Shown here one piece after another: positions 10,395 to 30,468 of a DNA stretch of 64,000 nucleotides. Positions within the stretch are counted from its first letter, which is position 1; each line of letters opens with the position of its first letter. Source of the stretch: Akkermansiaceae bacterium (GTDB taxonomy: Bacteria > Verrucomicrobiota > Verrucomicrobiia > Verrucomicrobiales > Akkermansiaceae); assembly GCA_051252195.1 (NCBI GenBank), contig JBPOGD010000006.1:144551-208550 (forward strand), in the 5' to 3' direction. Under the pieces are notes generated by a model, which saw only the letters and a list, made by a program, of their open reading frames with translations, had not been told where the DNA came from and ran no database searches. The translations under genes were made by a program, and so were the position numbers.

Positions 10395-10643
10395 ATGATG
10401 TTTTCTGATTTAGCCGATGCCCTCGAAGCCCGAATTGCTGTGATATCCGATCATGAATTCCGTGACAGGGATCCCGAAGCTCACCTCGAAGCCCTTATAA
10501 ATGCGAGCCAAGCGATCACTTCCTGGCACGAAGCGCACCGGAGTGAAATTGATGGGAACCTCGACCACTTTCTCACCGGCGCCAGTTACCAGAAGGCACT
10601 CCTCTATCTTAAGACAGGGACACGGCGGCCGTGCGGGGAGTAA
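10395..10643 (+). CDS. small hypothetical protein (82 aa) whose 3' end is part of the repeat family
   Basis: Its C-terminal 38 codons are conserved, with synonymous changes, in the fragment at 7416-7532. ATG at 10395. Confidence 0.45.
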   Translation: MMFSDLADALEARIAVISDHEFRDRDPEAHLEALINASQAITSWHEAHRSEIDGNLDHFLTGASYQKALLYLKTGTRRPCGE

Positions 10644-11000
10644 GACTCTGCAACTCACTAGGAGTTTTTGACGGAAAGGGCGTTTCACCTCTGTTTTTTA
10701 ATCAATGCCATACGCCTCGTTTTTTTGACCACGAATCGCACGAATTTTCACGAATCTTTGCTTGGCTACTGAGTTCATTTTGAACCACGGAAAGTATGGA
10801 AAGCACGGAAATGTCGAAAAGCTGAACCAAGAAAGCTGAACCATTCAGAACTCTTCGTATTTATCATTCTAAACTCACTCCACTCCACGCATTCACCCTC
10901 TTTATCCCAGAGGGATAACATCACCTAGCACGGGGTTGATACCCCGTGAATAGAAACCTCCCATAAAATAAAGCATGCCGGAGGTATGCCATCGAAAGAG
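10565..11000 (+). repeat. Copy B of composite repeat (includes the 3' end of ORF 10395..10643, CACGAAT x3 direct repeats at 10730-10756, hairpin 10911-10930)
   Basis: About 75-80% identity to copy A over about 430 bp. Hairpin cacgggg-ttgata-ccccgtg replaces the copy-A hairpin at the same relative position. Confidence 0.7.
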
Positions 11001-11088
11001 CCTAAATGTTGGTTTTGCCAATTTCAAGAATCGAGAACTACCTCCTTTCTGCTTACGCGAAATGATGCACATGCCTGCCCCCTTTTAG

Positions 11089-12330
11089 TTACTCCTCGAA
11101 AATACTAATCGCTTGTAGACTTTCGGAATCATACTCGACTTCGCCGCCTTTGAGTTCCTGGTTGAGGATTCCTTCGAATAGAGGTTTTTTCCAATAATCT
11201 GGAGTTTTCACGGTGGAGACTCCCGGTGAGAGGCTAAAGCCCGGCTTATCTTTTGGGCGTGGATCATGATCCTCCGGCCAGACACCAAAGAATGCTTGGC
11301 CTACCTTCCATCTGAAATAGCCACGTCCACCAGGTTCAACCACGGTCATTGCCTCACCCACAAACTGCCACTCAATGCTTAGACCAACGCTTGCTGTTTT
11401 GCTCATGCTCATGATTCTCATGTCGCGTGTTGCCTTGTCCACTGCGGCATGAATGTAGTCGTCCCTGAGTTTCTCTCCAGCTTTCGAAGCGGGAAATAAA
11501 TCACCCGCTGGAATGAGTTCAGGCCTGCTTAGCATCTTTTTCCCCATGGTTTTGGCTAAAATAGCAAACCTCTCTTTCGCAACCTTGGACATACGTTTCT
11601 TTTGAAATGCACCAATGACTGCCTGCCTACCGGTATCACTAAACTGCGCCTTGGCGGGGCTTGGCTTAGCTTTTTTAGATTGCTGAACCTGTTTATGCAG
11701 GATGAGTGCCTCTTTCATGGCCTCTAAAGTCGCTGCAGGTGACTGCAAGGCAGGTAAAATATCCATGACCACACCATCGATATCACAGAAGTAGATGGCG
11801 ATTTCTCCACTGATCGATCCTTTAAAGCTTCTACCCTCGCCTAAATTAAACGTCACCGTCTTCACATCTGCCACACTTTCCCATACGGGCACGAAATCTT
11901 CCTTCAGCATTTTGGTAACCCGACTATCGGAGAACGTCACGGTTCTCGCTAATTTGCCATTGGCTCAGCAAAACTCCTCATCCAGCTTACCAAACAAATG
12001 CAGCATCAGGATCGGTTTCCCCGTCGCTTTTGATTCTTCGATGGCCTCGGCGAGTGAACGTTTCCAGATGACATCCGTCTGTGATCCCCACTGCCCTGTG
12101 ATTCTTCCCAATGCCGTGCGAGCTCTGGCTTTTAATCGAGGATCTTCAGCTCCAGCCCATTTTCTCAGTTTCGGTAGCATGACTTTTCCTTGGCTCACAC
12201 ATGAATCGATGCCCCCGCTAGCGATGCTCTTATCAGCACTCATGAGAGCTTGTTGCACCTTGTCCTCAGCGCAGAAGCTGGGACTCCATGTTCCTGCTAA
12301 TACCAACATCATACAGATTTTATTTTTCAT
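11089..12330 (-). CDS. secreted thioredoxin-fold (DUF255-like) protein interrupted by a single in-frame TGA at 11965-11967; candidate selenoprotein, otherwise a nonsense pseudogene
   Basis: ORFs 11965..12330 and 11089..11940 are in the same frame and only the TGA separates them. Read through, the sequence is ...KPILMLHLFGKLDEEFC-TGA-ANGKLARTVTFSDSRVTKMLKEDFVPVWESV.... That places the stop at the thioredoxin-fold active-site position, between strand beta1 and helix alpha1. A 6-bp hairpin, GAGAAC-CGUGAC-GUUCUC in the RNA, starts 18 nt after the UGA. Confidence 0.5.
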
Positions 12331-12445
12331 ACTTACAAGACTAACATGAATTAAACATATGTATGTAAAGGGTTTGTAAAAAAACTGAAAGTTAGAAAAA
12401 GGAAGATAAATGGCTCATCAAACAGTGGCGACATAAAAGGTCTGT

Positions 12446-12513
12446 CCCTTAGTTCAATCGTCCCTTAGTGCAATCCCTTAGTGCAATCCCTTAGTGCAAT
12501 CCCTTAGTGCATT
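12446..12513. repeat. tandem array of about five 13-bp units (cccttagtgcaat)
   Basis: Direct read: cccttagttcaat cgt cccttagtgcaat x3 cccttagtgcatt. It lies about 120-185 bp upstream of the 12330 start on the minus strand. Confidence 0.85.
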
Positions 12514-12527
12514 CAGGGAGACTGCTT

Positions 12528-12863
12528 TTATTCGGTATATGATTTAGATAGGTTTCTCGTAATGATATACACCTTTCCATCTTCAAATAAAGCGAGGTAT
12601 GGAGTATAGAACCCATACATTCCTATCCTGTTCTTAGCTCGCACATCATAAGTCATTAAATATTGCATGCCTCTACTTCTTTCGCGAAGCTTTGGCCCAG
12701 TCACATTTTTATATTCAGCACTTTTACTATTAACAAGATGATCATCCATCGCGACCTTGATTTGAGCTAAGCCTTCTTTGGGTAATGGCTGTGGTTGCGC
12801 TAATGGATCTACGCATGAAGCTAGTAATATTAAAGGAAGGATGAGTAATGTTTTTAAGTGCAT
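12528..12863 (-). CDS. hypothetical lipoprotein (signal peptide then Cys)
   Basis: MHLKTLLILPLILLASC... is a lipobox-like N-terminus; no family assignment. Confidence 0.45.
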   Translation of the reverse strand: MHLKTLLILPLILLASCVDPLAQPQPLPKEGLAQIKVAMDDHLVNSKSAEYKNVTGPKLRERSRGMQYLMTYDVRAKNRIGMYGFYTPYLALFEDGKVYIITRNLSKSYTE

Positions 12864-12920
12864 TTTAATAAAGGGATGAAGGTTGAGCCTGTTAATGAAT
12901 GGGAATACTATGACTAAAAG

Positions 12921-13020
12921 GGGTCAGGAAGGTGAATTACTCATTAGTGTGGTTACTGGCTTGATATTTTTTGAGTATTTTGCGCTCCTTGGTCAAGGCT
13001 CGGGAGTCGCACTCAGTTTG
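12921..13020 (+). repeat. 100-bp dispersed repeat, copy 1 (second copy at 20961-21062)
   Basis: gggtcagg..ctcattag..ggtt..tgat..ttgagt..cgctcc..caaggctc..agtcgcactcagt is shared with the second copy at about 80% identity. It is non-coding, and indels break the reading frames. Confidence 0.7.
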
Positions 13021-13479
13021 GAATAACTGCTCGGTATCTGAGTCTTTGAAGGAGTGAATCATGGGGAAGGTTGTTGTAAATCAATGCCTGACACCTTTAC
13101 GCAAGGATGATACGGAAACGCTTAGAGAGAGATTGCTGGAGGGGATTATTTCGCAAAATTATAGCTGGTTGAGTTTATCATTCAGTAAACTTGGGTACCA
13201 TTTACACAAGAGCAAATCGAAATAAGATCGTCATCAAATGGTGTCAGGCATGAATGCCCATGATAATAGCAATGCATGTTAAAGATTGCGATATCTTAGC
13301 TGAAATGAAAATGACAGCTATGTTAATCTAGGGAATGTAATTGCTAACTAAGGTTAGCTCAGAGCATTTTCTCGAAAGAGCTAGTGGACGTTGACGGCAC
13401 TCGATTAGCTAAGACAAAAAAACCCACCATTGATTAACAATGGCAGGGACATAAAAATAAACATAATGGGTGATATGGG

Positions 13480-13947
13480 CTATTTCTTCATCATCTCCTC
13501 CTTTTTCATCATTTCATTTTCTTTCATGATGAGCGCTTTCCACTCTCCATCTGCTTTAGCGATGTGTGATGCTGTGTCTTTAGTGAATAGTTTGCCGACT
13601 TTTGCGTTTTTGTTGAGGTAGAGCTTTCCTTCTACTACTGTGAATACTGTAGGGTCGGAAGGGATCTTCTTACCAAAAGACATGCCGTAGGCGCAGTATC
13701 CATCATATTGTGGAAGGAACTTCTTTGGTGCTGCGTTAAATGCTTTTAGTGCGTCTTCACTGACGAATAGGTAAGTTTTACCATTATATTCAGCTTTAAA
13801 TTCTTCCGTTCCTTTGGCTGCTACGTTGCTAGCGATGTAACAAACAGGGCAATAGCCATCGAGTGCTGGAGCTTCCGCTGCAATGGATGTAAAAGTGGAG
13901 AGTAGAGCTGTAGCCGCAACGACGAATAATGATTTAAGGAATTTCAT
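13480..13947 (-). CDS. secreted YHS/TRASH-domain protein (two YHS-like CxxC/Y-rich modules)
   Basis: Signal peptide MKFLKSLFVVAATALLSTFTSIAA. Repeated GYCPVCY..GK..Y.F.S.DA...F and DGYCAYGM..GKK modules. Confidence 0.65.
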   Translation of the reverse strand: MKFLKSLFVVAATALLSTFTSIAAEAPALDGYCPVCYIASNVAAKGTEEFKAEYNGKTYLFVSEDALKAFNAAPKKFLPQYDGYCAYGMSFGKKIPSDPTVFTVVEGKLYLNKNAKVGKLFTKDTASHIAKADGEWKALIMKENEMMKKEEMMKK

Positions 13948-14461
13948 AATAGTTAGTAATGGTTAATAAGAAGCAGTGGCTTCTTGTTCATTAGAGTGAA
14001 GAGTTAGAATTATATTCCTGTAACTCGTAAAAATTAATTGTTTCTATGAATATTAAACAGCCTTGAGGGGCGGGGAGTAACTGTAAATCCGTAGGAATTC
14101 AGCAAACTAAAGATTTGAAATGGACGGCAAGTTTGCATGTTAATTCGGGTCAGGCATACATTGGCATCATATCACCTATCTAAAATCGAATTGATTACGC
14201 AAAATGATGCAAATCAATTCCTGAACTCTTTTGTGACCCCTTTTTGGTCTTTTGGGTGCCCCCTTTTGTAAGTATTGAAATACCTACCCTTTTTTAAAAC
14301 TTATACCAATGAAGTTAAGTTACTGGTAGAAACCGCACAGAGATTTTAGTCTGTATCAAGGCGGACGATTATTGTGATGCCAAAGCATCTCAATAAATTG
14401 ACAACGATCATATCGGCAAAAAGATCAAGTGGGTTTTACCGGTTAATTAAGTGAGTTGGTA

Positions 14462-14839
14462 TTAGACAGCATGTTTCTTCAGGTCCTCTAAATCAACAAA
14501 CTCCAGAGCCATCACCGAGGTAGCTGCTAGGTTGACCTTAGGGGCGCAGCCCTGATCGAAGGCTTCCTTCCAGCGAAGGAGGCAGAGGCACCATGAGTCG
14601 CCAGGCTTAAGACCTGGGAAGGAATACTCAGGCCTGGGTGTGATGAGGTCGTTACCCTGGCTACGACTGAAGTTGAGAAACTCCTCGGTAAGGACGGTGC
14701 AGACACAGTGAAGTCCGTGGTCGCCACCTCCTGTGCGACATGAGCCATCGCGGAAGAACCCAGTGATGGGATCGAGGGAGCAAACAGCAAGGGCTTCACC
14801 GAGGACGTTAAGATTAGGCATGGTCTGATGATAGTGCAT
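14462..14839 (-). CDS. DUF2237-family protein
   Basis: NVLGEALAVCSLDPITGFFRDGSCRTGGGDHGLHCVCTVLTEEFLNFSRSQGNDLITP...FPGLKPGDSWCLC matches the conserved DUF2237 pattern. Confidence 0.65.
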   Translation of the reverse strand: MHYHQTMPNLNVLGEALAVCSLDPITGFFRDGSCRTGGGDHGLHCVCTVLTEEFLNFSRSQGNDLITPRPEYSFPGLKPGDSWCLCLLRWKEAFDQGCAPKVNLAATSVMALEFVDLEDLKKHAV

Positions 14840-15011
14840 GGATGAAAACCTGACAAGCGAGAGCTTGCAGTGTTGCCTTGTTCACGAAGAGTCTTACTGT
14901 GTGGCAAGGACTGTGTGGCACTGTGTGGCGAGAAGTATGATGAAATACGTCTGTCACTTTGCAGTATGCCAGAATCATCTATTATCCTTAGAAACTTTAT
15001 CCTCAGAAGCT

Positions 15012-16298
15012 ATGAGTAACTCTAACCAGACCCCGCTGCCCGTGCTCATTGTAGGAGCTGGATTAAGTGGTCTTACTTGCGCCGTGCGTCTCCATGAGGC
15101 CGGTATTCCTGTGCGCCTCATCGAGGCCAGTGATGGAGTCGGCGGGCGTGTCCGCACCGATCGTATGCAGGGCTTTCTACTAGACCGTGGTTTCCAAGTC
15201 TACCTCAGTGCCTATCCTCAAGCTGGTAAACTACTCGATACAGAAGCTCTCCAGCTCAAGTCCTTTGAACCTGGGGCACTTGTTTTTGATGGGCTGAATC
15301 TGAATCGTGTGATGGATGTCTTCAGAAGGCCGAAATATCTTGTCAGCAGCGCTCTTTCATCGATAGGCGGGCTAGCAGATAAGGTGAGGGTGGCACTGCT
15401 AAGGTTCCAGACCTTGGGCAGTTCAGAAAAAGAAATCAACAGCCGCGAAGACCAATCTACAGAGAGTTTCCTGAGAGGATTCGGTTTCAGTGAAAAAATG
15501 ATCGATGGTTTTTTCAGATGTTTCTACGGAGGCATTTTTCTTGAAACCTCACTGCGCACTTCCAGCCGTATGTTCCAGTTTACCTTCAAGATGTTCACTG
15601 CTGGTAGCGCTACCCTGCCTGCCTATGGAATGGGTAGCATCCCACTGCAGCTTTCAAGTAGACTGCCGCCAGAGACCATCCGATTTAACTCTCCTGTCAC
15701 AGCCGTGACGAGTTCCTCCGTGAACCTTGCCAATGGGAGCATTCTCCAAGGAAGCCATGTAGTCATCGCCACTCATGCGCCACAGACGAGCCTTTTAATT
15801 CCAAGTTTTAACTCACGTGCGCCTCAATGGCGATCCGTGACGAATGTGTATTTCGCTGCACCTAAGTCGCCACTCAATGAGGCGATTATCGCTCTGAATG
15901 GCAGTGGTAAGGGGCTGATTAATAACGTCTGTGTGCCTTCTGACGTCAGCCCTCACTATGCCCCAGCGGGCCAGTCCCTCATCTCTGTTTCCCTGCTAGG
16001 TATACACAAGGACGAGAGTATTCCCGCTCAAGTGAAAACTGAACTCATCGAATGGTTTGGCAGTGATACGGATCGCTGGACGCACCTCAGAACAGACATC
16101 ATTAAACATGCCCTCCCAGAGCAACTTCCCGAGAGTGATTTACAAAACCATCAAGATGCCAACAAGGGATTTCTTGAAATAGACGGCATGATGATTTGTG
16201 GCGATCACACCACCAGCGCATCCATCGAAGGGGCGATCATTTCTGGAAATCAAACAGCGGCCGCACTACTCAAGTCGATGGGGTTAAAAAACACCTAG
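15012..16298 (+). CDS. FAD-dependent amine oxidase/phytoene-desaturase-superfamily oxidoreductase
   Basis: N-terminal dinucleotide-binding motif PVLIVGAGLSGLTCAVRLHEAGIPVRLIEASDGVGGRVRTD. I placed the start at ATG 15012 (MSNSNQTPLPVLIVGAG). Confidence 0.8.
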   Translation: MSNSNQTPLPVLIVGAGLSGLTCAVRLHEAGIPVRLIEASDGVGGRVRTDRMQGFLLDRGFQVYLSAYPQAGKLLDTEALQLKSFEPGALVFDGLNLNRVMDVFRRPKYLVSSALSSIGGLADKVRVALLRFQTLGSSEKEINSREDQSTESFLRGFGFSEKMIDGFFRCFYGGIFLETSLRTSSRMFQFTFKMFTAGSATLPAYGMGSIPLQLSSRLPPETIRFNSPVTAVTSSSVNLANGSILQGSHVVIATHAPQTSLLIPSFNSRAPQWRSVTNVYFAAPKSPLNEAIIALNGSGKGLINNVCVPSDVSPHYAPAGQSLISVSLLGIHKDESIPAQVKTELIEWFGSDTDRWTHLRTDIIKHALPEQLPESDLQNHQDANKGFLEIDGMMICGDHTTSASIEGAIISGNQTAAALLKSMGLKNT

Positions 16299-16588
16299 CC
16301 AGAGAATGCGATAAGGCATTGATCTGTGAGAATACTTATCACAACGAGGTCAAACCACATCAAATGATACAAATCAATTCCTGCCCCCCTTAACCCAATG
16401 TTTTAATGTGAAACCCAGTAAGGAAAGGCGTCGCTCTTTTCATGAAAAAGGCTAAAAAACCCAGTGTTTTTTAACAGGCTCAAATCACTTGATTTGCGGC
16501 TTAACTTAGTGCCATTCATGCCTGACTCCTTTACTTTTTCTTTATGAGCTTTAGAGCCAGCTTTTGTGGTATTTAATAGGTAGATCAA

Positions 16589-16840
16589 TTACTCCGTTGG
16601 AGACTGCTCACCGTGTTTCTGTTGCCGGTGATCACGGTCTCGATTTCTCTGATCCCTGTCATCGTTCGCATTACCTGGTTTACCTTTCTTTGCCAAGTTT
16701 GCATCTCGCTCGTCTAACTCTCTTTGCAATTTATCCTGTGCGTTTTTACCAGGCTGCACTGGACCAGGGACCTTTCCAATGAAGCCGCCACTAACGTTTA
16801 AATCTGGAGACTCATCATTTTTATGTGTTTTATCAGACAT
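16589..16840 (-). CDS. small highly charged hypothetical protein (83 aa)
   Basis: ORF only. It sits between short repeat motifs and is low-complexity K/D/R-rich. Confidence 0.25.
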   Translation of the reverse strand: MSDKTHKNDESPDLNVSGGFIGKVPGPVQPGKNAQDKLQRELDERDANLAKKGKPGNANDDRDQRNRDRDHRQQKHGEQSPTE

Positions 16841-17124
16841 ATGGGTAAGATGTAAAATTCAGATTTTAATGTCAATTTCGAATACGACAAAACATCCACT
16901 AGTCAGGGCGCTTGTTTCAATGCCGCCTCAAGTTCTGTAAACGCAATTTCAGCATACAAATCAATTCCTGACGAAGCCACGTGGCGTTTTTGAGCAGATG
17001 GTTCATAAATCAAATTACAGAAAAATGGCTTAAAGACGTGCCATTCATTCCTGCCCCCTTTTACATTCAGGATCTCCCCCTTTTTGCCTTTTTGATTTTT
17101 TTGCGTTAAACTTCGATTGATTGT

Positions 17125-18885
17125 TTATAAGAGGTTGATTTCCAGTATTTCAGCGAGATTAGTTTTCAGCGTTTTACGCCGCTCACTCCAGAATGTCTCA
17201 AAGTCGCCAAACTCAAGGCTGGTATTCAAGCCGATATGATTTGCTGTTAAGTAAGCATCTTTAGTCTCTTGAGTGACATACTTATCAGCTACCCATTCAG
17301 TAAATTTCTTTCCGCTTTTAGATTGGTTCGCGCTTTTTTCAAGGAGCTGTAAATTGGGCAGTGTATCTCTCTTAGCTATCCACGTTTGTTGAGCGTCCCC
17401 ATCTAGCCCTAATGTGTTCAGATTAGATTTATAGAAGGCTTTTTTAGGATGTATGTGATCTTGATGAAAGTGCATTTGGCTGAATCTGCACCCAGAATAG
17501 AGAAGCGATAATACTAAGAACGTTCCCCCTCCTGAGGTCTCATGATCTAAGAAGTTATCTAGATCATCTTCATTAAGCGATATGGAACGACCACTCGGTA
17601 ATTTGCAGTGTTTTGCAAAGTCGGTCACTGTGAATTCATTTGATTCGGGAAGGCTCTTTTTCAAGTAAGACCGTATGTCAATGAGGGTTTGATCACTATG
17701 TGAGCCAAACAGCCCAGTCATAAGTGCTCTTATAAGATATAGTCTGAGACTTTCTTTAGAACGGTTTATATCGAAACCCAAGTGATGTGCGTATACGATA
17801 AGTATTACGGCATTTGCAGAAGTTAGTTTAGATGCGTCAAATCCCCAATCTACGAGTAGAACCACTGTGTCGGTTATGCTTTCTGTGATTTTTTGCCAAT
17901 TTGATTTGATTGTTTCAACATTAGCTGCGCCAAAGGCAGATACGTTCAGCTTACTGCCGAAATCACATAATATGAGGCAGCTCCTCATGATCCAGTCAGT
18001 CCCAAAGTTGAACCCATCTCCTAGAGAATTAATATCTGCTAGGAAGTTCTCGATTTTCTCTCTGCCATCATCCCAGTGGGCTACGATAGTAGAAAAAAGA
18101 AGGTCTGTTTTAGAGAGCACCTTACCGCCACTATTGACTCGCACAAAAATATCTAAAATCTCATCGAGACTTTGATTTTTAACGGGGAAGTAGTTGATGA
18201 GCTCTTCTGTGGTTAGACGATTATAGAGTCGGTTTAGTAATCGCTTAGCCTTTCTATTTTGATCATGTGTAATCTCGAAGTTTTGAGGGATGTTCTTCAG
18301 GAAGTTTTCCCATAGATCCTCTACATGATCTGATTCACCAGCTGTTAATACCTCTTTAACTGGAAACCAGCACTCAGGCTCGTTGAACCTCTGCGGGCTG
18401 ACGTCACCCTCTGTTTTAAAAGCGAACTGGTATTCTACCTGGTCATATTCTGCGGCTTCAAAAAAAACGTTCACGTAGAAGAGTCTCTTAGGATAGGATT
18501 CCCTGCGGTTCCTGCGCCTTCCTTTGGTGTGGTAGGCGTAAGACCCCTGAAGCGCTACATACATTGAGTTAAGTCTCTGCTGACCATCTAGCACTCCAGT
18601 AATGTTGCCTTCTAAAATTGGTTGAGGGGCAATTTCGTTTTTCCAGTTATCGTATCCGCTGAAGTTTTGTAAGAATTTATAGAAAACATAGTTGTTTTCT
18701 GTTCCGTCATCGACTTCCCAGAAGAGGAATGTCCCTATGGGGTAGCCTCTCATGATGGAGTCAAAAAGTTTTTCAATTTGGTCCGCATTCCAAACGAACT
18801 TACGCTGGAGGGCTGGCAGGAAAATTTTGTCCTGACCAATATTGATCATGACATCTTTGATAGTTTTAGCTGAATAAGCGGGCAT
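17125..18885 (-). CDS. GmrSD-family type IV (modification-dependent) restriction endonuclease, DUF262 + DUF1524
   Basis: N-terminal DUF262 with the DGQQR motif (VLDGQQRLNSMYVALQG). C-terminal His-Me finger of DUF1524 (MHFHQDHIHPKKAF). Confidence 0.85.
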   Translation of the reverse strand: MPAYSAKTIKDVMINIGQDKIFLPALQRKFVWNADQIEKLFDSIMRGYPIGTFLFWEVDDGTENNYVFYKFLQNFSGYDNWKNEIAPQPILEGNITGVLDGQQRLNSMYVALQGSYAYHTKGRRRNRRESYPKRLFYVNVFFEAAEYDQVEYQFAFKTEGDVSPQRFNEPECWFPVKEVLTAGESDHVEDLWENFLKNIPQNFEITHDQNRKAKRLLNRLYNRLTTEELINYFPVKNQSLDEILDIFVRVNSGGKVLSKTDLLFSTIVAHWDDGREKIENFLADINSLGDGFNFGTDWIMRSCLILCDFGSKLNVSAFGAANVETIKSNWQKITESITDTVVLLVDWGFDASKLTSANAVILIVYAHHLGFDINRSKESLRLYLIRALMTGLFGSHSDQTLIDIRSYLKKSLPESNEFTVTDFAKHCKLPSGRSISLNEDDLDNFLDHETSGGGTFLVLSLLYSGCRFSQMHFHQDHIHPKKAFYKSNLNTLGLDGDAQQTWIAKRDTLPNLQLLEKSANQSKSGKKFTEWVADKYVTQETKDAYLTANHIGLNTSLEFGDFETFWSERRKTLKTNLAEILEINLL

Positions 18886-19022
18886 AGTTTTTTAGTGTTA
18901 AATTGTTTATTCCACAGCGTCACCGAGGGCTTGTCAGATTTCAAAATAAAAGATCTGTCCTTTTTTTCATTTCTATTCTTACCCCCTTATGCCGTAAGAA
19001 CGAGAGCCTTTTTCAGGATCGA

Positions 19023-19961
19023 CTAAATAGTTAAATCAACTCCTAATTTAGTATGAAGATGATTTTTTAATATCTTCATTGTCTTAGTCATTAAATTCGA
19101 TTCCTTTTTTAATGTATGACAAGCATAGGCCGATGGGGCAGTCGTTCTATTTCGTATATTTTTAATTTGAACAAGTTCAGTTTTGGAAGCTGAAAGAGAG
19201 GCCGTGATCATGGCCTTTTCAATTAGTCTAAGACGAAAATAGGAACCATCTGATTGCTTTGTTAATGAGTCGAAAGCCTCAGAGATAATAGCTGATCTAG
19301 AAGCTACATTAATTGAGCAGTTAATTGAAAAAGCCCTAGAAATACATTCGCTAACTTGACGTAACTCATCCAAACTTAGTGAAGGTTGTTTAGAACCTTT
19401 TCGATAAAGACTTTTTCCAACCCTGAGCTTAAATAGGTTTTGCTCATCATGCCCCTCAATTAATCCTCTGCGAACAAGCTCATCTATAATGTCTGTAAGA
19501 CTAAACTTGTACACGCCGAGATCAGCTAGAAAAGGGATTGCCATCGTTCTAAATGCGACAAATAGGGCGTCGTTAGCCCACCTGATACCTTCTGCGCAAT
19601 CTGGTGTTTTGTGGAGAAGTGTTGTTAGCCTATATCCGTCCCAAAATTCTTTCTGATAAGAATCCCGTATCTGAAAAGATTTATATAGTAATTGTAATTT
19701 ACCACTGGGATCTGAAAACACTACTGATTCTTCGATTAAATGTTTAATAAACAGAGAGCCAGTCTGCGTTAAATATTCGAGCTTCTTCCAAGTATATGTG
19801 GAACAAGAATAGCCCCTTCTTGTGAAGGTATATTCATTTTCTTGTAGCAAATCTACATCATCTGATACGATCAGAAGATCACGATCACTATGCACGTCAG
19901 TGTCTGTTCGGGCTAGGGACCCAAAAACCGCCATGGATAAGTCTGTATTGGCTCGTTTCAT
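19023..19961 (-). CDS. Pol-beta-superfamily nucleotidyltransferase-domain protein (312 aa)
   Basis: N-terminal NTase motif AVFGSLARTDTDVHSDRDLLIV (the GS...D.D catalytic signature), then a helical region of about 200 aa. It overlaps the upstream gene by 4 nt. Confidence 0.65.
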   Translation of the reverse strand: MKRANTDLSMAVFGSLARTDTDVHSDRDLLIVSDDVDLLQENEYTFTRRGYSCSTYTWKKLEYLTQTGSLFIKHLIEESVVFSDPSGKLQLLYKSFQIRDSYQKEFWDGYRLTTLLHKTPDCAEGIRWANDALFVAFRTMAIPFLADLGVYKFSLTDIIDELVRRGLIEGHDEQNLFKLRVGKSLYRKGSKQPSLSLDELRQVSECISRAFSINCSINVASRSAIISEAFDSLTKQSDGSYFRLRLIEKAMITASLSASKTELVQIKNIRNRTTAPSAYACHTLKKESNLMTKTMKILKNHLHTKLGVDLTI

Positions 19962-20893
19962 CGTTTTACAAGAAATCTAAAGAATATTGATGCTGCAACT
20001 GCAAAAAATAGAACCCCTATGATACTTTGCAAGCCCGCAGTGACTATTCCGAAATTCGAGGTAGCCCAAAAGTTGGAATGCCCCAGTGTAGTGATTAGCG
20101 AAGCTGTATAGTAAAAACTGGTATGAATTTCTCGGTTAACATCGAGCCCTGAAGATGAGTGCTTCATGCCGTAGTATAGCCAAAGTGAGTGGTTCAGAGC
20201 AAAGAGTAGCAAAAAACCAACACACAGACTTCCCGCAACTCGTAAAGGTCGCCAGCCAAATCCTGATGATAGTTGCAGGAAAAAAGCCCATGCATATTTA
20301 GCTAAAAACTTAAATGATCCGATTTTTCTAGTTTCACGGTCTCTGTATAGAGCCAGTCTTTTAAAATAGCTAAACATGAATTCAGCCTCAGCCCGAAATT
20401 CATGTTGATTCTCGCGAAGGCTATTCAAAGAAAGATTTTTGAACAGTCCAACACCTATGTTGGAATATGTTCGGCGATCCAAATTTAGAACCTTTGAAAA
20501 GGATCTAGGGTCAATATAACAAGCATCAAAAGCAGCTTTAAAAAAGTTACAGTTTTCAAAAACACAATGATGAAACTCGCAATTTCGAAACGTGGATCCA
20601 ATAAATAAACAATCAACGAATTTACAATCAGTGAAAGTGAACTGGCTAACCTCTGTCTTACTGAAGCTAACGTTTTTAAAGGTCTTATTCTCTATTTTTG
20701 AGAAGGATTTCGAAGATTTGAGCGTTTCAGGCATATATAGCCTATTTGTCATTTCACCTATTTTATCCATTTCCGATAACTCTTTCTGGAAGTCCTTCTG
20801 CTCGTCAAAATCAGCTACCTCGCCAAGAGTGCGGAAAAAATTCCGCACCTCTGAACCCTGCGTAAGTTTCAGTTCTTTATTTTGAGAAGGCAT
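19958..20893 (-). CDS. pentapeptide-repeat protein fused to a C-terminal two-TM ion-channel pore (Ion_trans_2-like) with non-canonical filter TTLGHSN
   Basis: Pentapeptide run NVSFSKTEVSQFTFTDCKFVDCLFIGSTFRNCEFHHCVFENCNFFKAAFDACYI. The C-terminus has TM1, a pore-helix-like SFYYTASLITTLGHSNF and TM2, collinear with KcsA ALWWSVETATTVGYGD. Confidence 0.65.
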   Translation of the reverse strand: MPSQNKELKLTQGSEVRNFFRTLGEVADFDEQKDFQKELSEMDKIGEMTNRLYMPETLKSSKSFSKIENKTFKNVSFSKTEVSQFTFTDCKFVDCLFIGSTFRNCEFHHCVFENCNFFKAAFDACYIDPRSFSKVLNLDRRTYSNIGVGLFKNLSLNSLRENQHEFRAEAEFMFSYFKRLALYRDRETRKIGSFKFLAKYAWAFFLQLSSGFGWRPLRVAGSLCVGFLLLFALNHSLWLYYGMKHSSSGLDVNREIHTSFYYTASLITTLGHSNFWATSNFGIVTAGLQSIIGVLFFAVAASIFFRFLVKR

Positions 20894-20960
20894 TGAGGTT
20901 TATATAAAACAATTTTATGAATTTTTCTATATTTTTTAAAAAACAAAAATGGAGGAAATA

Positions 20961-21062
20961 GGGTCAGGGAGATAAATGACTCATTAGCTTGGTTGCAGGT
21001 TTGATGTTTTTCTTGAGTGTTATTCGCTCCATCGCCAAGGCTCTGAAGTCGCACTCAGTCTA
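20961..21062 (+). repeat. 100-bp dispersed repeat, copy 2
   Basis: Matches 12921-13020. Confidence 0.7.
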
Positions 21063-21266
21063 GATACCTCGCCAGAAGTTTTCCGACTGACCGAAGAATA
21101 AAACGAAGCGGGTGGACATGATGGGTGTGATACGTTTCCCTAGGACGATTTTATTGATTGCACGGGGTGGGACGTCGATGGCTCGTGCCGTGGCATTTTG
21201 AGAAATACCCATGGGTTGAAGATATTCTTCGAGGAGGATTCCCCCTGCTGTGATTGGCTTTTTCAC
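21060..21266 (-). CDS. higA: HigA-family antitoxin-like HTH protein, C-terminally short and possibly degraded; no intact HigB partner
   Basis: [48 protein letters not shown] matches the HigA/XRE HTH consensus. GTG start. The upstream 190 bp has no intact toxin ORF. Confidence 0.6.
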
Positions 21267-21453
21267 ATATACAACCTGAAGTGTTGTGTGAATGGCGTCA
21301 ATCTAACAGAAGTCATGGTTTTTTATCGTATGAGATTACATACTTCTGGCATGTTTTGTTTCTTGTGGGTTGTGTTCACGGGGTATTCGAACCGCGTGCT
21401 ATGTGATATTATCCCGCTGGGATAGGGGGAGAACTCTAATCTTCCTTCGCAGG

Positions 21454-22008
21454 TTAAGCTTGCTGGTTATTATTCGCTAGGGGGATTTTGTCGGTTGCTT
21501 CAACAAGACCCTTAAGGAAGCGAATGGCTTTTTCGAGTTCATCACGTTTCACTAGGTGGGGTGCACTCTTGGAGTCGTGATTTTTGTTGGCTTGATGCGC
21601 TGCATCACCCCTTTTTGAAATGATGCCGTCTAATACTCGTTTTGCTTGAGGTGTATCGTAGTTATCCCAAGCCCAGCTTTTCGTTATATCTATGTCAAAA
21701 TACTTTATGAAAAGCTGCTTAGCATTCGAGCTGTTGGGGCTATTGAAGCGACGTAAATCTTCTTTTAATTGGCGGAATGCAAAGTTTGCTATGGGGCTTC
21801 CTCGCATGGCGGATAGCCACATACTTATTTCTTCACGCATACGGTCTTTTAAGTATGTGTCCCATGCCGCTGCCGCTATTATATAGCCCGCGCGTTTGAG
21901 CACTTCGGCATTATGATCGGAAGGTGTGATTTTTTCTTCATCAAAGCGCTTGAGTAGTTCCTCGGCGCCTTTGATGGACTGTTGAAATGCGATTGCTGAT
22001 TCTGACAT
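21454..22008 (-). CDS. hypothetical protein with possible HEPN-like Rx4H motif (KRGDAAH)
   Basis: An alpha-helical 184-aa protein; the Rx4-6H motif lies near the C-terminal third. The assignment is weak. Confidence 0.4.
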   Translation of the reverse strand: MSESAIAFQQSIKGAEELLKRFDEEKITPSDHNAEVLKRAGYIIAAAAWDTYLKDRMREEISMWLSAMRGSPIANFAFRQLKEDLRRFNSPNSSNAKQLFIKYFDIDITKSWAWDNYDTPQAKRVLDGIISKRGDAAHQANKNHDSKSAPHLVKRDELEKAIRFLKGLVEATDKIPLANNNQQA

Positions 22009-22162
22009 GAGTTTGTTAAGTTAATCTCCCTGCGGCACATCAACCTTTTCCTTCGCTGATGCTTCGGCAGACGAATTCTGGTTTTGGCGGATTTCAGGAT
22101 CTATGCTGCTAGCGATTGATCTGTGAGGCTGGCTTTGATCAAATTTCTAAATAGTGAGTAGC

Positions 22163-22726
22163 TCAGGCTGATGGCTGTTTATTCTTAGAGCGCATGAGTT
22201 TCACGAGGCCAATGATGGTAAAGATCAGAATAAGGATACCAAAGATGAAAGTGACAACTAAGGCTCCAAGAGCTTTTCCTATTGCGGCCATGAAATTTCC
22301 AGAGGTCTCAATAGCTGAGGCTTGGAAGACTTGTCCTTCAGTCGCACCAGTGGCGGAGACGTTATACGTCTTACCTTTTTCTACATTAAACGAGCCAATG
22401 AGATGCTTGCTGCCGATTGTGGTGATAGGTTCTGGTCTTTGAACGGAGAAGGGCTGTTTCCCTTCTTCAGCGATGATTGCCCGGATGCGGCGTAGATCTA
22501 GGTTAGTATCGTCGCTATTTAGCCAGACAGTGACAGCGCTGTCTTTCTCTGCGGAGTATGTTAGGGACTCGGGGGCTACAAAAACCTCACCATTATTGAA
22601 GTTTTTGACGAAAGTCAGCCCTGTTGGTAAAGCGCTGAGGCCGAGGAGCGTGACGATGCCGCCACCGATGAGGAATAGGATGAGTGCTGCAGTGAGAAAT
22701 CCGCAGCCTTTTTTCTTAGTAGCCAT
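22163..22726 (-). CDS. membrane protein with N- and C-terminal TM helices, unknown function
   Basis: TM segments GFLTAALILFLIGGGIVTLLGL and LGALVVTFIFGILILIFTIIGLV. Confidence 0.45.
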   Translation of the reverse strand: MATKKKGCGFLTAALILFLIGGGIVTLLGLSALPTGLTFVKNFNNGEVFVAPESLTYSAEKDSAVTVWLNSDDTNLDLRRIRAIIAEEGKQPFSVQRPEPITTIGSKHLIGSFNVEKGKTYNVSATGATEGQVFQASAIETSGNFMAAIGKALGALVVTFIFGILILIFTIIGLVKLMRSKNKQPSA

Positions 22727-22917
22727 GTTGTTATTTTAGGTCGAAAGTTTATTTAAGTGTTTTCTAGAAGCTAGGGACGGTGATGATGCTTTCTAGCTGG
22801 GTGATGGTTTCGCGGCTAACTGTAGGTGTCCATGATACCCATACATCGCTTTCTTCAAGGTTTAGAGTAGATGTCTGTGCTGCGACCTGTGATCCCAATA
22901 GTGACACTCTCAGAGTT

Positions 22918-25092
22918 TTATTTAGCAAATCTAAAGAATTTTTTGCCCGCACCTACTGGTATAGTGACGTTTGCTGAGCTTCCTGTAGGTGTCCAGTCAT
23001 CAGTTACTCCTAAGTCGGCACTTTCTTCTAGGCTAAACTCGATAGTTGCGTTGGTTTCGCTTTGGTCAATAGCGATTGTGATACTCCCAGGGCGTAGGTC
23101 GGTGATTTCAGTAAGATCGTATTTGCTTGCAACTTCTGTTTCTAAGTTATCAATGGCTGTATCCTTGTCAGACAACTGAGTCAGGAGGATATTAACGAGA
23201 GCGTTTTCACTGATAAGGCCAGTGAGAGTAGCACCATTGATATTAATTCCATCGAGGTTAGAAAAGCTTAGGTTGGCGTTCGTGAGGTTAGCACCAGATA
23301 GATCAGCATTGCTCAGATCACTATAGCTCAGGTCAGCACCTGTTAAGTTGGCTCCTGGTCCAATGAGGTATCCGTTAACAAGCTGCCACCCCGCAGGTAA
23401 ACTGTCAGGTATACCGTATTGAATACCTCCAGACTGGACACCAGTTAAATTAGCAGTTCCTAGGTTAGCATTCTCAATATAAATGCCGAATAAATTGGCA
23501 TTCGTGAGATCAGCATTGGTGAAATTATTTGATTCTATAAATGCGTTGGTCAGGTTAGCTCCGCTAAGGTTGGCGTTGGTCAGGTTAACATTATGCAGAT
23601 TTACACCGGTAAGGTTATTACCGCTAAGATTGGCCCCACTAAGGTTGGCTTCGTATAGGATGGTATCCGTAAGGTCATTCTGACTAAGGTTAGATCCACT
23701 GAGGTTGGCGTTATTTAGCATGGCACCTTGAAGGTTAGTTGCGCTAAGGTCAGTGTTGGATAAGTTTGCACCTGGCCCAATAAGGAAGCCGTTATCAAGA
23801 ACCCATTCAGGATCCAAGCTTGTTGGGACTCCTGTTATCCCACCAGATGTCACACCCGTCAGGTCTGATTGACTGAAAAAAGCTCCGCTCAAATTAGCAT
23901 TGACTAGGTTGACGTTCGTAAGTGTTGCATTGACTAATAAAGTATTAGTGAGATTTGCACTAGATAAATTACTGTTAGCGAGATTTGCCTGATCGAGGAA
24001 TGCTTCCGTCAGGTCGACTCCAGTTAAATTCAGGCCATCTAAGTCAGCATAAGCTAAATGGGCGCTTGGTCCGATGAGGTAGCCGTTTGTTAACACCCAG
24101 TTTGTCGGTAAATGGCTGGGGGTGCCTGTGATGCCACCAGAAGAAACACCTGTTAATACTGCACCGCTGAAGTTCGCTCCATTTATATTGGTATTCGTAA
24201 ATTGTGTGTATTCAAGATACGCATTGGTAAAGTTGACATCTGTTAAATTAAAACTTTGAAAATCTAGAAAGGTTAAATCGGCATTAGTAAAGTTGACGCT
24301 TATCAAATGAAAGCCTTGTAAATCAATTCCGCTTAAATCGGCATTAGATAAGTTTGCGCTAGGTCCTATAAGGTATCCGTAACTAAATGTCCAATTTGCA
24401 GGGAGACTAGCAGGAGGAGGGCTAAAGATATTGCCAGACTGTACACCGGAAAGGTCAGCACTTCCCATGATAGCCCCATCTATGAAGGCTCCATTGAGAT
24501 TTGCGTTAATGAGGTTAGCGTTAGATAGGTTCGCATAAGATAGGTCTGTATTAGTGAGCTGATTATTATATAGATTAGAACTGCTAAGGTTGGCTCCAAA
24601 TAAGGCAGAATTTGCCAAATTTGTGCCCGTTAAGTCAGTGTTTGATAAGTCAGCGCCTGGACCTAGGAGAAAGCCATTATCAATTTGCCACAAAGGGGGT
24701 AGGCTGAGAGGTGTTCCCACGATGTCGCCTGAACTAATGTTGATTAATGTAGCTCCGCTGAAATCCGTGTTTGTGAGGTCGGCTCCAGAAAAGCTAACCG
24801 TGTTGTGGATGCTGTTTAATAAATTAGCATTTGTTAAGTTCACATTATCGAATGAAACTTCTTCAAATGATGATCCCATAAGATCTGCATTTGCTAAATT
24901 AGCGTTTGTTAAATCAGCGTTATAGAGAGTGATAGAACTAGCTAGATTAGCTCCATTGTATGAATGGAGTACACTTGTATTAATATTGATAATATCTAAG
25001 ACCTGTCCAGATGTGTTGGTATAGGTGGCGGCTTGTGTTAAGGCTGCTAATTTAAGAAAGCACAGTGCTGCAACTTTGTTATAGTGGATCAT
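22918..25092 (-). CDS. large secreted pentapeptide-repeat protein with six periodic non-repeat insertions and a C-terminal beta-rich domain
   Basis: Long A(D/N)LxxAxL pentapeptide runs are interrupted about every 95 aa by GITGxPxxLPxxWxLxNGYLIGPxAxLSxADLSG. Signal-peptide-like VAALCFLKLAALTQAA after Met31, so the start is at 25092. Confidence 0.8.
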   Translation of the reverse strand: MIHYNKVAALCFLKLAALTQAATYTNTSGQVLDIININTSVLHSYNGANLASSITLYNADLTNANLANADLMGSSFEEVSFDNVNLTNANLLNSIHNTVSFSGADLTNTDFSGATLINISSGDIVGTPLSLPPLWQIDNGFLLGPGADLSNTDLTGTNLANSALFGANLSSSNLYNNQLTNTDLSYANLSNANLINANLNGAFIDGAIMGSADLSGVQSGNIFSPPPASLPANWTFSYGYLIGPSANLSNADLSGIDLQGFHLISVNFTNADLTFLDFQSFNLTDVNFTNAYLEYTQFTNTNINGANFSGAVLTGVSSGGITGTPSHLPTNWVLTNGYLIGPSAHLAYADLDGLNLTGVDLTEAFLDQANLANSNLSSANLTNTLLVNATLTNVNLVNANLSGAFFSQSDLTGVTSGGITGVPTSLDPEWVLDNGFLIGPGANLSNTDLSATNLQGAMLNNANLSGSNLSQNDLTDTILYEANLSGANLSGNNLTGVNLHNVNLTNANLSGANLTNAFIESNNFTNADLTNANLFGIYIENANLGTANLTGVQSGGIQYGIPDSLPAGWQLVNGYLIGPGANLTGADLSYSDLSNADLSGANLTNANLSFSNLDGININGATLTGLISENALVNILLTQLSDKDTAIDNLETEVASKYDLTEITDLRPGSITIAIDQSETNATIEFSLEESADLGVTDDWTPTGSSANVTIPVGAGKKFFRFAK

Positions 25093-25325
25093 TACGTGAG
25101 TTTTTATTGGTAGCATACTTGTTATTTTCCTAGTATGTGATGACGATAAATAATTAGTGATCTGATAGATTTTATATAACAAGCCCTAACCATATTAACT
25201 TCGAGCCAAGTATTATTTAAATAAACTTACGGCAGGCAGGGCTACCTCACTATAGGGGGCTAAAGAGTTGGGATTAGACATGTAAGCTACATGCAGTGCC
25301 CTAGCCTTTCTTGAGGCTTCTTGCC

Positions 25326-28300
25326 CTAATCTCCTTGTCTGACATCGGGCTTGATGGTGATGGGGGTTTTCTTCGCCGTTTTCTTCTTACTCGTCTTCTC
25401 CATGTTCTCTACGCCGCTTTGTTGGTCGGCGATGAGGTTGATATCGACTTCTACGGGGACGGCTCTTAGTGCTGAGATGATTTTCTCTAGCTGAGTGACG
25501 GTTTCGTTCGCTAGGCTCTGGGGCTGGGCGTAGCTGCTGCCTGCGGCGGCGATGCCGTCTTTGATGGAGTCGAGGCCGTCATTGAACTGGGTGAGCTGGG
25601 CGACGACGCGGCTGATGGGGTCGTTCTCACCAGCTCCGCCGAGGAGTTTGTTTTTATTGAAATCTTTTTTGATCGATTCCCAGCGTTGGGTGTCGGCCTC
25701 ACTGAGGATGCCTTCCATTTCCTTGAACTTGAGTAAATTTGCCTCGGCTCCGGTGGTGAGGGTCTGCGATTCATTTTCGTAGTGATCGATGATGATGGCG
25801 CGGACTTCATCGTGGGTCATCATGGGAAGAATTTTCTCCGCCATGCGGCTCATGTTTCGGTAAGAGCCTTGCAGTTTAAAGGCGGGTTCGGTGCGGTAGT
25901 TGTCCTCTTGGGCGGCGGATTGAATATACTGCAAGTTTACCTGCAGAATGGTATCGCGCACGGTGTAGAGGTGCTTGACGGTTTGGACAAAATCATCGAT
26001 CTCGGCAGGGGTGTAATTGCCTTCGAAATCGACTCCCTCTGGGCTGCCTGAGGTGGCGATTTGCATCACGGCGTAGACGTCTTTTTGAGAACGAGAAGCG
26101 AGTTTGGAAAGGACGCTATTGGAGGTGAGGCAGTTTTCGATGTACGAGGCTTTGAATGACTCCGCGTGGCCGCCGATGATGTCGCCGAGATTGTAGGTGT
26201 CTGCTCGGTTAGCTAACATGTCGGGGATCTGGAACTTGCCACCGCTCTCGGTATAAGGGTTTCCTGCCATGACGACCGAGACTTTTTTACCACGGAGATC
26301 GTAGGTGCGTGCTCTGCCCTGATAGACGCCTTCAATCTTACGCTGGGCATCACAGAGGGAAATGAACTTCTGGAGAAACTCGGGATGACAGTGCTGGATG
26401 TCATCGAGGTAAAGCATGACATTGTCACCCATTTCTAGAGCGAGGTTAAGCTTTTCAATTTCTTCACGCGCCGAGGCGTTAGGTGCCTCTGCGGGGTCGA
26501 GTGATTTGACGTCATGACCAATGGCGGGACCATTGATTTTCATGAAGGTGAGTCCGAGACGATCTGCCACGTATTCCATCAGCGTCGTTTTTCCGTATCC
26601 CGGAGGAGAAATGAGGAGCAGAAGGCCCATGCGATCGGTGCGGGTATCGACGCCGGCGGTGCCCATCTGTTTGGCGAGATTATCACCGATCATCGGGAGG
26701 TAGACGTCGTTGAGGAGTTTATTGCGCACGAAGGAGGACATGACGCGTGCCTGGAACTCATTGAGACGCATCTCTTGGCGCTTGGCCTCTGTGAGCTTGT
26801 GCTTGATGTTTTGGTAAGCGAGGTAAACGGGGACGATCTCTGTTTCGAAGTGATCCAGCTTGTCCATAAAATCGTTATAGTGCAGCTGGTAGTTAGGCTC
26901 GGTGCCGAGGAGTCCTGTGACGTCAGCGGTAACGACGACGTGGTGGACGTTGAGGGTGCTGTATGTGTCGGCTGCTAGATGGGCTGCGGCTTCAGATAAT
27001 AGTGCCTGATTGCTGAGTTCGCTCGTCGATCTCAGCCAATCGAGAATCGTTTGGTACTTCGCCTTACCTGTGAGGGTGGAAATAGAGTCTTCGTAGTTTT
27101 TCTGCGCGCGTTTGGCGGTGAGGGTTTGGTGGAATTTTTTGAGGATGCTGTCCGCCTCGGGCGAAATAACAAAGTCTGTTCCAGAGCTGAGTTGATCGTA
27201 GAGATAGGCTGCTGTGCTCGTGATCAGTGGGGTGTGACCAGTGCTCGGGGAGTGCTGGGTGAGAGCATTTTCGAGGATCGCAATATAGGGGTTTCCAGCC
27301 GTGTAGGAGGTCTGCTCGAAGCCGCTTTTCCTCATGAGAGCGTGGTTCTGTAGCTGCGTGGCGAGGGTGTTTTTTTCCTCAGACTCCCAGAGACTCCAGA
27401 AGAGGACAGCCATGGCACGCACCTCGGGACTGTACTTAAGTAGTCCGATATTTTGGTGAATGGGCATAATGGCTTGCAGAAAGAGGAAGGCGTCGTGGTC
27501 GTGGACGCCCTTGGTGTAGGACTCTGAGTAGCGTGAGGCGGCGAACTTCTGGATGGATTCTATCGATAGAGAATTTGGGTGTGCGGCTTCGCCATTTGTT
27601 TCATTCACGACCGGAACGGGCATGCTACGGAGGAACTGGTAAGCAAGGTACTCGCCGCGGTAGACGTCCTTGTTTTCAGAAATAAGCTCCTGATCCCAGA
27701 TTGGCTGGGTGGCGAGGAAATCGGGATCCGTGATCGGTTCAAAGAAGTCGGTTCCCGTGAGGTGAAAACACATCGCAGCATCGCGAGGCACGATGGAAAG
27801 CTCAAGCTTCTGGGTGTTAACGGCAAACTTGTGTTTACCTAACTTGATAATATTTGTGCCGTCGACGAAGAGTTCCTTACGGTCTTTGAGCTGTCGTACG
27901 GCATCTTCTTTGAGCGTTTTAAGCTGTGTCTGGATGTCGGCAGATTTAACCGAGTTTCCGAGGTCGTTGAGCTGCTCAATGATGTCGCGGACCTTGGAAA
28001 TCATCAGGTCACCAGCGAAGTAGCCGTTGATTTCGTTAAGTTCCTTAAAGGTAGCGACACGATTTTTAATGCCTGATAGAACGCGTTCGGCAGATTTAAC
28101 AAGGTTGGCTGCGCGTTTATTGCGTTTTTCTGTAAGAGCTGTTTTACGGGAGTCGAAGGCGCTGTAGACCTCCTCGCGCTTGGCTGCGAGATCTTCCGCG
28201 TACTCGTCAAACTCAGCAAATTTTCCTTCTAACTCCTCAATCTGCACCATGACCTTGGTGAGATACTCCTCACACTTTTCAGGGGCGTCACAGAGATCGA

Positions 28301-30392: not shown

Positions 30393-30468
30393 TGTTGAAA
30401 CTTAAATTTTGAAACCACGAATCTTATGAATCGGACTAATCTTTGCTTGGGTTTGGCTTTTTAGAGAC

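Follow-up and report, generated by a model that had tools for sequence, protein, structure and literature searches.

An Akkermansiaceae gene cluster with a BrxU-type restriction enzyme and a distant homologue of the Hailong system

Genes of the cluster and its BrxU-type enzyme

We analysed a 64-kb window of an Akkermansiaceae (Verrucomicrobiota) chromosome (all coordinates are positions in this window), with a focus on a run of minus-strand genes that a sequence-only reading had described as a horizontally acquired defence island. The open reading frames (ORFs) named in that reading encode a GmrSD-family restriction enzyme, an overlapping pair made up of a nucleotidyltransferase and a pentapeptide-channel protein, a truncated HigA antitoxin, a protein with an Rx4H motif and a two-transmembrane (2-TM) protein. 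All of them were found on the minus strand at the coordinates that had been given for them (Table 1), and their identifications were largely correct. Known immunity families cover three of these genes, which encode the GmrSD protein and the pair that we refer to as HalA-like and HalB-like after the two proteins of the Hailong system.

The claim of a GmrSD enzyme was confirmed for a full-length protein of BrxU type. The protein matched Pfam GmrSD_N at 6.4e-30, while GmrSD_C alone stayed under its gathering threshold (18.9 vs 23 bits). In PADLOC it matched HEC-05 over its full length (1.5e-178, 593 bits), and its residues 7-578 aligned with residues 6-575 of the BrxU structure 7P9K in the Protein Data Bank (PDB; E 1.7e-89). 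The N-terminal DUF262 NTPase motif DGQQR is present as LDGQQRLNSM, in register with the BrxU motif, and the C-terminal DUF1524 His-Me finger motif is present as DHIHPK, opposite DHIYPK of 7P9K. The HEC-05 model corresponds to BrxU, for which a role as a type IV enzyme of the GmrSD family directed against modified phage DNA has been validated (bioRxiv 10.1101/2024.01.29.577857). The window protein is equal to it in length, has the same domain order (DUF262, linker, DUF1524) and keeps both the DGQQR and the DH-I-x-P motifs. Judged by its sequence, membership of the GmrSD family is secure, and homology predicts a dimeric type IV nuclease that needs NTP to cut DNA with modified cytosines. BrxU is often encoded inside a BREX, Hma or type I restriction-modification locus, whereas the window gene instead adjoins the Hailong-like pair.

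Table 1. Features of the cluster and of the repeats in and around it. Lengths of proteins are in amino acids (aa). L048 is a Logan contig; L057 is the short contig JBPOGJ010000038.1 of assembly GCA_051251935.1.
Feature	Coordinates	Strand	Evidence or remark
BrxU-type GmrSD-family type IV (modification-dependent) restriction enzyme, 586 aa	17125..18885	-	Pfam, PADLOC, PDB
HalB-like Pol-beta nucleotidyltransferase, 312 aa	19023..19961	-	NCBIfam HalB, PDB, Foldseek
HalA-like effector, 311 aa	19958..20893	-	NCBIfam HalA, Foldseek, pentapeptide and pore layout
AT-rich spacer upstream of the halA-like gene, weak candidate promoter	20894..20957	-	sigma-70-like sites
HigA-family helix-turn-helix (HTH) antitoxin remnant, C-terminally truncated, 68 aa, GTG start	21060..21266	-	TIGR02607, HTH_3
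RiboL-PSP-type HEPN protein, 184 aa, predicted RNase	21454..22008	-	Pfam PF18735
187-aa protein with hydrophobic helices at the N- and C-terminus	22163..22726	-	ORF list
83-aa charged low-complexity ORF, unassigned	16589..16840	-	ORF list
Motif copy GTGCCATTCATTCCTGCCCCCTTT, 64 nt past the GmrSD stop, bracketing the low-GC block on its left	17038..17061	+
Motif copy, CAAATCAATTCCTG variant	16951..16970	+	L048 ends at ~16961
Motif copy GTGCCATTCATGCCTGACTCCTTT	16509..16532	+
Motif copy, 66 nt past the amine-oxidase stop	16364..16391	+
Motif copy between a YHS-domain gene and a DUF2237 gene	14204..14231	+
Repeat E, partial copy (~105 nt), right end at the higA truncation point	20958..21066	+	~80% identity to 12917-13025
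Repeat E, longest copy, 182-bp unit with inverted termini AAAGGGGTCAGGAA ... TGCCTGACACCTTT, like a miniature inverted-repeat transposable element (MITE)	12917..13098	+
Repeat F copy (~95 nt) between the higA remnant and the HEPN gene	21339..21424	-	aligned with 10898-10998 and two L057 copies

A two-gene module homologous to Hailong

The overlapping genes, previously recognised as a nucleotidyltransferase (NTase) and a pentapeptide-channel protein, proved to be a real two-gene module that is strictly conserved and homologous to HalB and HalA of Hailong. The halA-like gene comes first, and its stop codon overlaps the start of the halB-like gene by 4 nt.

HalB-like is laid out as an NTase core, a helical domain and a clade-specific C-terminal helical extension of ~110 aa. 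It matched the NCBIfam HalB model at 1e-24 (87.4 bits), an E-value that no other NTase in the family alignment (A3) surpassed; bit scores are given for the window proteins, and other members of the clade were scored on the NCBIfam models by E-value only. Its sole sequence matches in the PDB were the HalB entries 9dbh, 9dbj and 9dbi, which were reached at 2e-5 with the single sequence and at 7e-15 with a ten-member profile. The Pol-beta signature FGS...SD26-R-D28-LL (G14-S15, D26-x-D28) is invariant in the family, and D26 and D28 align with the DxD mutated in the PDB entry 'HalB D21A/D23A'. Y102 is also invariant and aligns with a tyrosine of HalB. The AlphaFold (AF2) model has a pLDDT of 85, and in a Foldseek search with this model ranks 1-13 were all HalB (E ~6e-7, template-modelling scores of 0.69-0.70 on the target), with the first non-HalB fold, ANT(4''), at an E-value of only 3e-2. 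The additional C-terminal region, which spans residues ~197-305 and has conserved Y241, R245 and E248, is present in all aligned NTases of the clade that are longer than ~250 aa.

HalA-like joins a pentapeptide-repeat domain to a transmembrane pore of the tetrameric-channel type. An N-terminal alpha/beta part is followed by a pentapeptide beta-helix (residues ~65-135), a helical linker and a 2-TM P-loop pore of the potassium (K+) channel type. The protein matched NCBIfam HalA at 1.4e-9 (37.7 bits), and the same model was matched by all aligned HalA-like members (43/43, best E 2e-16), 17 of which also matched K-channel models. Its predicted structure (pLDDT 91.6) had HalA (9nyi_A) as the top Foldseek match at 6.7e-9, and HalA is the sole solved structure that matches both of its halves. 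HalA-like and HalA therefore share an architecture. Across the alignment of the channel proteins (A2) the filter occurs as TTLGFGD, TTLGYGD, TALGFSS, ATLGASG, TTLGPMG and TTLGHSN, and ion selectivity may vary among members of the clade.

Homologues of the pair were collected from genomes and metagenomes. An exhaustive profile hidden Markov model search of 1.84 billion representatives returned 208 members of the clade (clusters at 50% identity) at E < 1e-30, and a set of 45 HalA-like homologues showed 26-45% identity to the window protein at lengths of ~270-330 aa. Among 5.8 billion clusters, the best non-self homologue reached 45% identity for HalA-like and 39% for HalB-like. A full-length HalA-like gene was present at 47 metagenome loci, 43 of which extend at least 300 bp downstream, and at every one of these 43 the two genes lie in A-then-B order on the same strand, abutting or overlapping. 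This order was also seen in 4/4 looked-up homologues, with a downstream NTase of ~295-340 aa; in one of them the genes are separated by insertion sequences (IS). These loci represent a separate, sizeable and strictly operonic Hailong-like sister clade, and the genomic contexts of the pair are otherwise unrelated. The IS-separated locus (Desulfolutivibrio sulfoxidireducens, CP045506.1) is an example of module inactivation: its HalA-like protein of 268 aa is without the pore end, and the elements DDE_Tnp_1 and ISL3 lie between the two genes.

The window pair has several features in common with Hailong (PDB 9nyi, 9dbh, 9dbi and 9dbj), including a two-gene operon with halA before halB and a Pol-beta NTase with a DxD motif and a helical domain. 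What the analysis shows for the pair is its homology to Hailong, the fold, the catalytic residues and the coupling of the two genes. Differences are seen in size, in that HalB has 229 aa and is without the C-terminal extra domain of the 312-aa window protein, while HalA has 371 aa compared with 311 aa here. Canonical Hailong has also been described as a pentapeptide protein with an IRK K-channel and an NTase with a HEPN-like part (PMC13586616). Because both NCBIfam equivalog cut-offs were missed widely (87 vs 190 bits for HalB, 38 vs 250 bits for HalA), we regard the pair, from its sequence relationships, as a distant homologue of Hailong and not as an equivalog-level member.

Further results weigh against a close functional parallel to Hailong. 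Identity to the solved HalA and HalB is only 13-23%, no similarity to the HalA pore is detectable in the sequence of the HalA-like pore, and the window filter is degenerate (TTLGHSN) where many relatives have TTLGFGD or TTLGYGD. HalA-like was unmatched in PADLOC, and a scan of IMG/VR viral contigs returned no HalA-like relatives. HalB-like carries its extra domain of ~110 aa, and for this reason the chemistry of the signal, or else the way the channel is gated, could depart from that of Hailong. Speculatively, a filter as degenerate as this one would belong to a cation pore without selectivity. It appears improbable that the clade as a whole, with its extra HalB domain and K-channel filter, uses another nucleic-acid signal or ion selectivity than Hailong does.

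The mechanism of Hailong (Tan et al. 2025, Nature 643:794), in the steps summarised in section 11 of PMC13434031 and in PMC13276650, provides a model for how the pair might work, in which the use of a DNA signal, the control of the channel and its triggering by phage are all carried over by analogy. HalB-like would constitutively synthesise a tyrosine-primed (protein-primed) oligo-deoxyadenylate, and this oligonucleotide would bind between the subunits of the cytoplasmic pentapeptide 'crown' of a tetrameric HalA-like channel and lock the pore shut. Phage 5'-3' DNA exonucleases would then consume the oligonucleotide during infection, upon which the channel would open, the membrane would depolarise and growth would stop before phage release, aborting the infection.

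The pair might instead have no anti-phage role. It could be a cation or K+ channel of normal physiology that has its own regulatory NTase, or a type VII-like toxin-antitoxin (TA) addiction module whose NTase makes no DNA ligand but modifies the channel protein. The family profile does match K-channel pore domains strongly (1e-11), with a canonical TTLGYGD or TTLGFGD in many members, and 2/10 NTase partners weakly matched the MntA antitoxin model. The missing PADLOC and IMG/VR matches fit this alternative too, as do the many housekeeping genes (MutL, UvrC, SAICAR synthase, Dus, S1) that neighbour the pair in several other genomes and count against a defence role. However, restriction enzymes were found among 2/10 sampled neighbours (one type I enzyme, HsdR, and one type III enzyme, Res), and the pair has a low GC content in the window and adjoins a type IV restriction enzyme. 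The pair also occurs sparsely and patchily, with ~208 clusters at 50% identity among 1.84 billion representatives, and its contexts are unrelated, as expected of a mobile accessory module. HalA is moreover the only solved match to both halves of the channel protein, and HalB chains are the only PDB matches of the NTase profile. On balance we consider a function unrelated to phage rather unlikely, and the TA variant is not truly exclusive of the Hailong reading because Hailong itself behaves like a toxin-antitoxin pair.

As a distant Hailong homologue, the pair would extend DNA-gated-channel defence of this kind to the Verrucomicrobia. It also points to a gap in detection, as neither the NCBIfam equivalog models nor PADLOC v2.0.0 as run here call the Hailong-like clade, and a 2026 paper reports that Hailong goes undetected by DefenseFinder and PADLOC. 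With canonical K+ filters in many members and an extra NTase domain, the clade offers natural variants for studying the evolution of oligo-DNA gating and ion selectivity. Sigma-70-like sites lie at 20940-20912 in the spacer upstream of the halA-like gene, where the number of such sites in the region is not above shuffle expectation.

Decayed and solitary genes and the origin of the cluster

A truncated HigA without a toxin had been reported, and this description was accurate. The protein matched TIGR02607 at equivalog level (8.3e-16, 57.6 bits, cut-off 47.7) and also carries the HTH_3 signature of Pfam, as in HigBA modules. The window HigA covers only profile positions 1-66 of 81, and so is without the last ~15, and has no HigB. 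The frame ends in '...NFWRGI*', with its stop (21060-21062) inside repeat E and right where that repeat starts. No open frame for a HigB toxin was found in 21267-21453, where all frames are closed, or downstream. A HigB remnant upstream of higA was considered and rejected, as the frames there are closed and the pieces too short to score. The gene is a remnant and at most an orphan HTH regulator, whose 3' end would have been lost to the insertion of the ~105-nt MITE-like repeat.

The Rx4H protein had been called HEPN-like, and it is indeed a RiboL-PSP-type HEPN protein, with a full-domain match to PF18735 (2.6e-20, 73.6 bits against a cut-off of 28.4) and the Rx4H motif R133-GDAA-H138. According to Anantharaman et al. 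(2013, PMC3710099), the RiboL-PSP-HEPN family has a distant relationship to the HEPN domains of AbiF and AbiD. The window protein shares the full-domain match and the motif with this family but has no L-PSP fusion and no adjacent ParB or DUF262 partner, the DUF262 domain of GmrSD lying 2.5 kb away with genes in between. Its 466 homologues occur across phyla at ~55-62% identity, and the gene was solitary in 3/3 other genomes examined. It was unmatched in PADLOC, NCBIfam and the PDB. No experimental evidence for a role in defence was found, and we regard it as a candidate RNase that is not an established defence gene. The 2-TM protein, which had also been assigned to the defence cluster, was unmatched in Pfam, PADLOC, NCBIfam and PHROGs and its gene has a GC content typical of the genome, so that its inclusion was not supported. 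A joint HEPN and 2-TM module was rejected because the HEPN gene stands alone in the three other genomes. Of the cluster proteins searched in PADLOC, GmrSD was thus recovered as HEC-05, but HalA-like, HEPN and the 2-TM protein were not.

Taken together, we consider it likely that these minus-strand genes form a genuine small cluster of immunity type, in which two independent and credible defence units are accompanied by debris. Its components are probably all of known kinds, namely a BrxU-type type IV enzyme, a divergent Hailong-like system, an antitoxin gene in decay and a HEPN gene that stands alone. Apart from the Hailong-like clade, this is an ordinary case of defence-gene co-localisation, and the biology of the window is unsurprising.

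The proposal that the cluster had been acquired horizontally, for which GC content and codon usage had been suggested as a check, fits the GC data for part of it. Overall GC and GC at third codon positions (GC3) were 0.416 and 0.431 for the GmrSD gene, 0.377 and 0.304 for the halB-like gene and 0.388 and 0.359 for the halA-like gene, compared with gene medians of 0.489 and 0.488 and a standard deviation (SD) of 0.078 for GC3. These three genes lie ~1 to 2.4 SD under the gene median, but the higA remnant, the HEPN gene (mild deviation) and the 2-TM gene (0.482) are near-typical, and by codon-usage likelihood the GmrSD, halA-like and halB-like genes were not separable from other genes. By its GC and GC3 the GmrSD-HalB-HalA block (~17.06-20.96 kb) is foreign, and horizontal acquisition is its probable origin. 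Signs of a mobile element did not accompany it: no integrase or transposase domain was found in the scanned ORFs, and there were no tRNA genes or flanking direct repeats. These negatives and the ordinary codon-usage likelihood speak against an island.

They would also suit a stable ancestral chromosomal neighbourhood that is no island at all, in which accessory-type genes came together by chance and the repeats are irrelevant intergenic debris. The same arrangement was identical in all five sequencing runs that carry the region (SRR34144889-93), GC is typical in the 2-TM gene and in higA, and the motif family described below extends from 10.2 to 21.0 kb, with copies around metabolic genes too, all of which fits such a neighbourhood. 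The nearest of 46 loci with the flanking amine oxidase, from Oceaniferula/Akkermansiaceae metagenome-assembled genomes (MAGs), are 77-80% identical in amino acid sequence and have no neighbouring gene in common, and so do not bear on an insertion. The HEPN gene has a copy of 90% nucleotide identity over 755 bp on L057, where it is followed by repeat F and then by kinase genes, and not by HigA, HalAB or GmrSD. This contig is labelled Bacteroidota yet carries several of the dispersed repeats of the window genome, and because of these shared repeats it probably comes from a relative; the MAG label is probably wrong, or the contig was mis-binned from an Akkermansiaceae relative. As the HEPN copy stands in a different context there, it points to acquisition of the 17.06-20.96 kb block, which is not proof. 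HalA-like and HalB-like have no close homologue in any database genome, and the truncation of higA by a repeat insertion argues for recent local turnover. Along with the low GC and GC3 of the three block genes, these observations make a stable ancestral neighbourhood distinctly unlikely, and we favour a cluster with an acquired core.

Dispersed repeats and neighbouring genes

The repeats that had been described as borders of the island are real. The motif aYgatRcaaatcaattcctg occurs exactly at 14204 and 16364 and with two mismatches at 16951, where the core from 16956 is exact (3 matches vs 0.00 expected), and gtgccattcatKcctg occurs at 16509 and 17038 (2 matches vs 0.06 expected). Both are sub-variants of a single motif, ATKCCTGMCNCCTTT, which gave 17 matches at no more than two mismatches, compared with 6.1 expected, and 11 convincing copies. 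These 11 copies are intergenic and all fall within 10242-20972, or 10.8 kb of the window, where they stand at most gene-block boundaries, those of metabolic genes included. Two inward-facing copies, at 17050 (+) and 20972 (-), flank the low-GC GmrSD-HalB-HalA block. None was found in 117 loci of other organisms.

Copies of the motif lie on the left flank and inside the region, and because there is none near its right edge at 22.7 kb, the region is not bordered by these repeats. The short repeats belong to genome-specific intergenic repeat families and are not island borders of the attachment-site type. It appears very improbable that Akkermansiaceae have an undescribed variable region of cassette type, into which the motif copies would allow recombination or insertion and in which the defence block would be a captured cassette. 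A reading as an attC or integron-like motif was retained at low probability only, as neither a paired imperfect palindrome nor an integrase was seen. A sigma-54 promoter reading of GTGCCATTCAT (reverse strand TGGCAC-N4-TTAAGC) was rejected, since the GG-to-GC spacing is one base over and one copy would drive nothing.

The ~100-bp dispersed repeat, here repeat E, was likewise confirmed from two sites (Table 1), and its start is an inverted copy of ATKCCTGMCNCCTTT. It was also considered as a structured RNA and rejected, with fold z-scores of -1.8 and +0.85 and no structure common to the copies. Close to repeat E, a tandem array of five 13-16-nt units (GTCCCTTAGTGCAATC) lies in intergenic low-GC sequence at 12444-12514. 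A region with a 54-aa ORF (13061-13225, +) is placed between inverted motif copies at 13085 and 13237 and has 80% nucleotide identity to positions 5397-5524 of L057. A small gene under conservation would account for it, as might a further mobile unit.

Two features of the locus had been overlooked, the 83-aa ORF and a second dispersed repeat (repeat F). Exact-protein look-up returned no record of the 83-aa ORF or the flanking amine oxidase as called genes. Repeat F has two internal, hairpin-forming palindromes, TATCCCAGCGGGATA and CACGGGGTTCGAATACCCCGTG. Besides the copy in the cluster, it was located in the window at 10716-11040, 5938-6082 and 7595-7822, and on L057 at 660-770 and 4255-4350. 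It matched no Rfam family at the gathering threshold; a MITE is one possible identity and a small RNA with structure another. Scans of the whole window for tRNA genes and Rfam families returned no match.

Beyond ~12-33 kb the window holds metabolic genes, which include those for aconitase, a chondroitinase-B-like protein, a NUDIX protein, a glutamate-synthase domain, a decarboxylase, an M48 peptidase and MsrA. The cluster itself is directly adjoined by a gene (22918-25182, -) for a 754-aa protein with a hydrophobic N-terminus, nearly the whole of which is made up of pentapeptide repeats (12 stretches, Pfam Pentapeptide at 4.9e-88; GC3 0.377). The segment at 25326-33675 (-) encodes a 1688-aa DUF3686/DUF7902/AAA+ protein, a PDDEXK_3 nuclease-fold protein from a low-GC gene (0.385), a 670-aa protein with a faint match to flotillin FloT and a 207-aa ORF. 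None of these proteins had a meaningful PADLOC match, and a literature search for DUF3686 was without result. Two of the Logan contigs that reach this segment, L048 and L049, begin at ~30475, beside the PDDEXK_3 gene, and their common start suggests a branch in the assembly graph there. On the other side of the window, a gene at 6158-7393 (-) encodes a protein of 411 aa in which three endoribonuclease L-PSP (RidA) domains stand in tandem; they correspond to an internal DNA repeat of 3 x ~410 nt with 64-73% identity, and copies of repeat F lie on both of its flanks.

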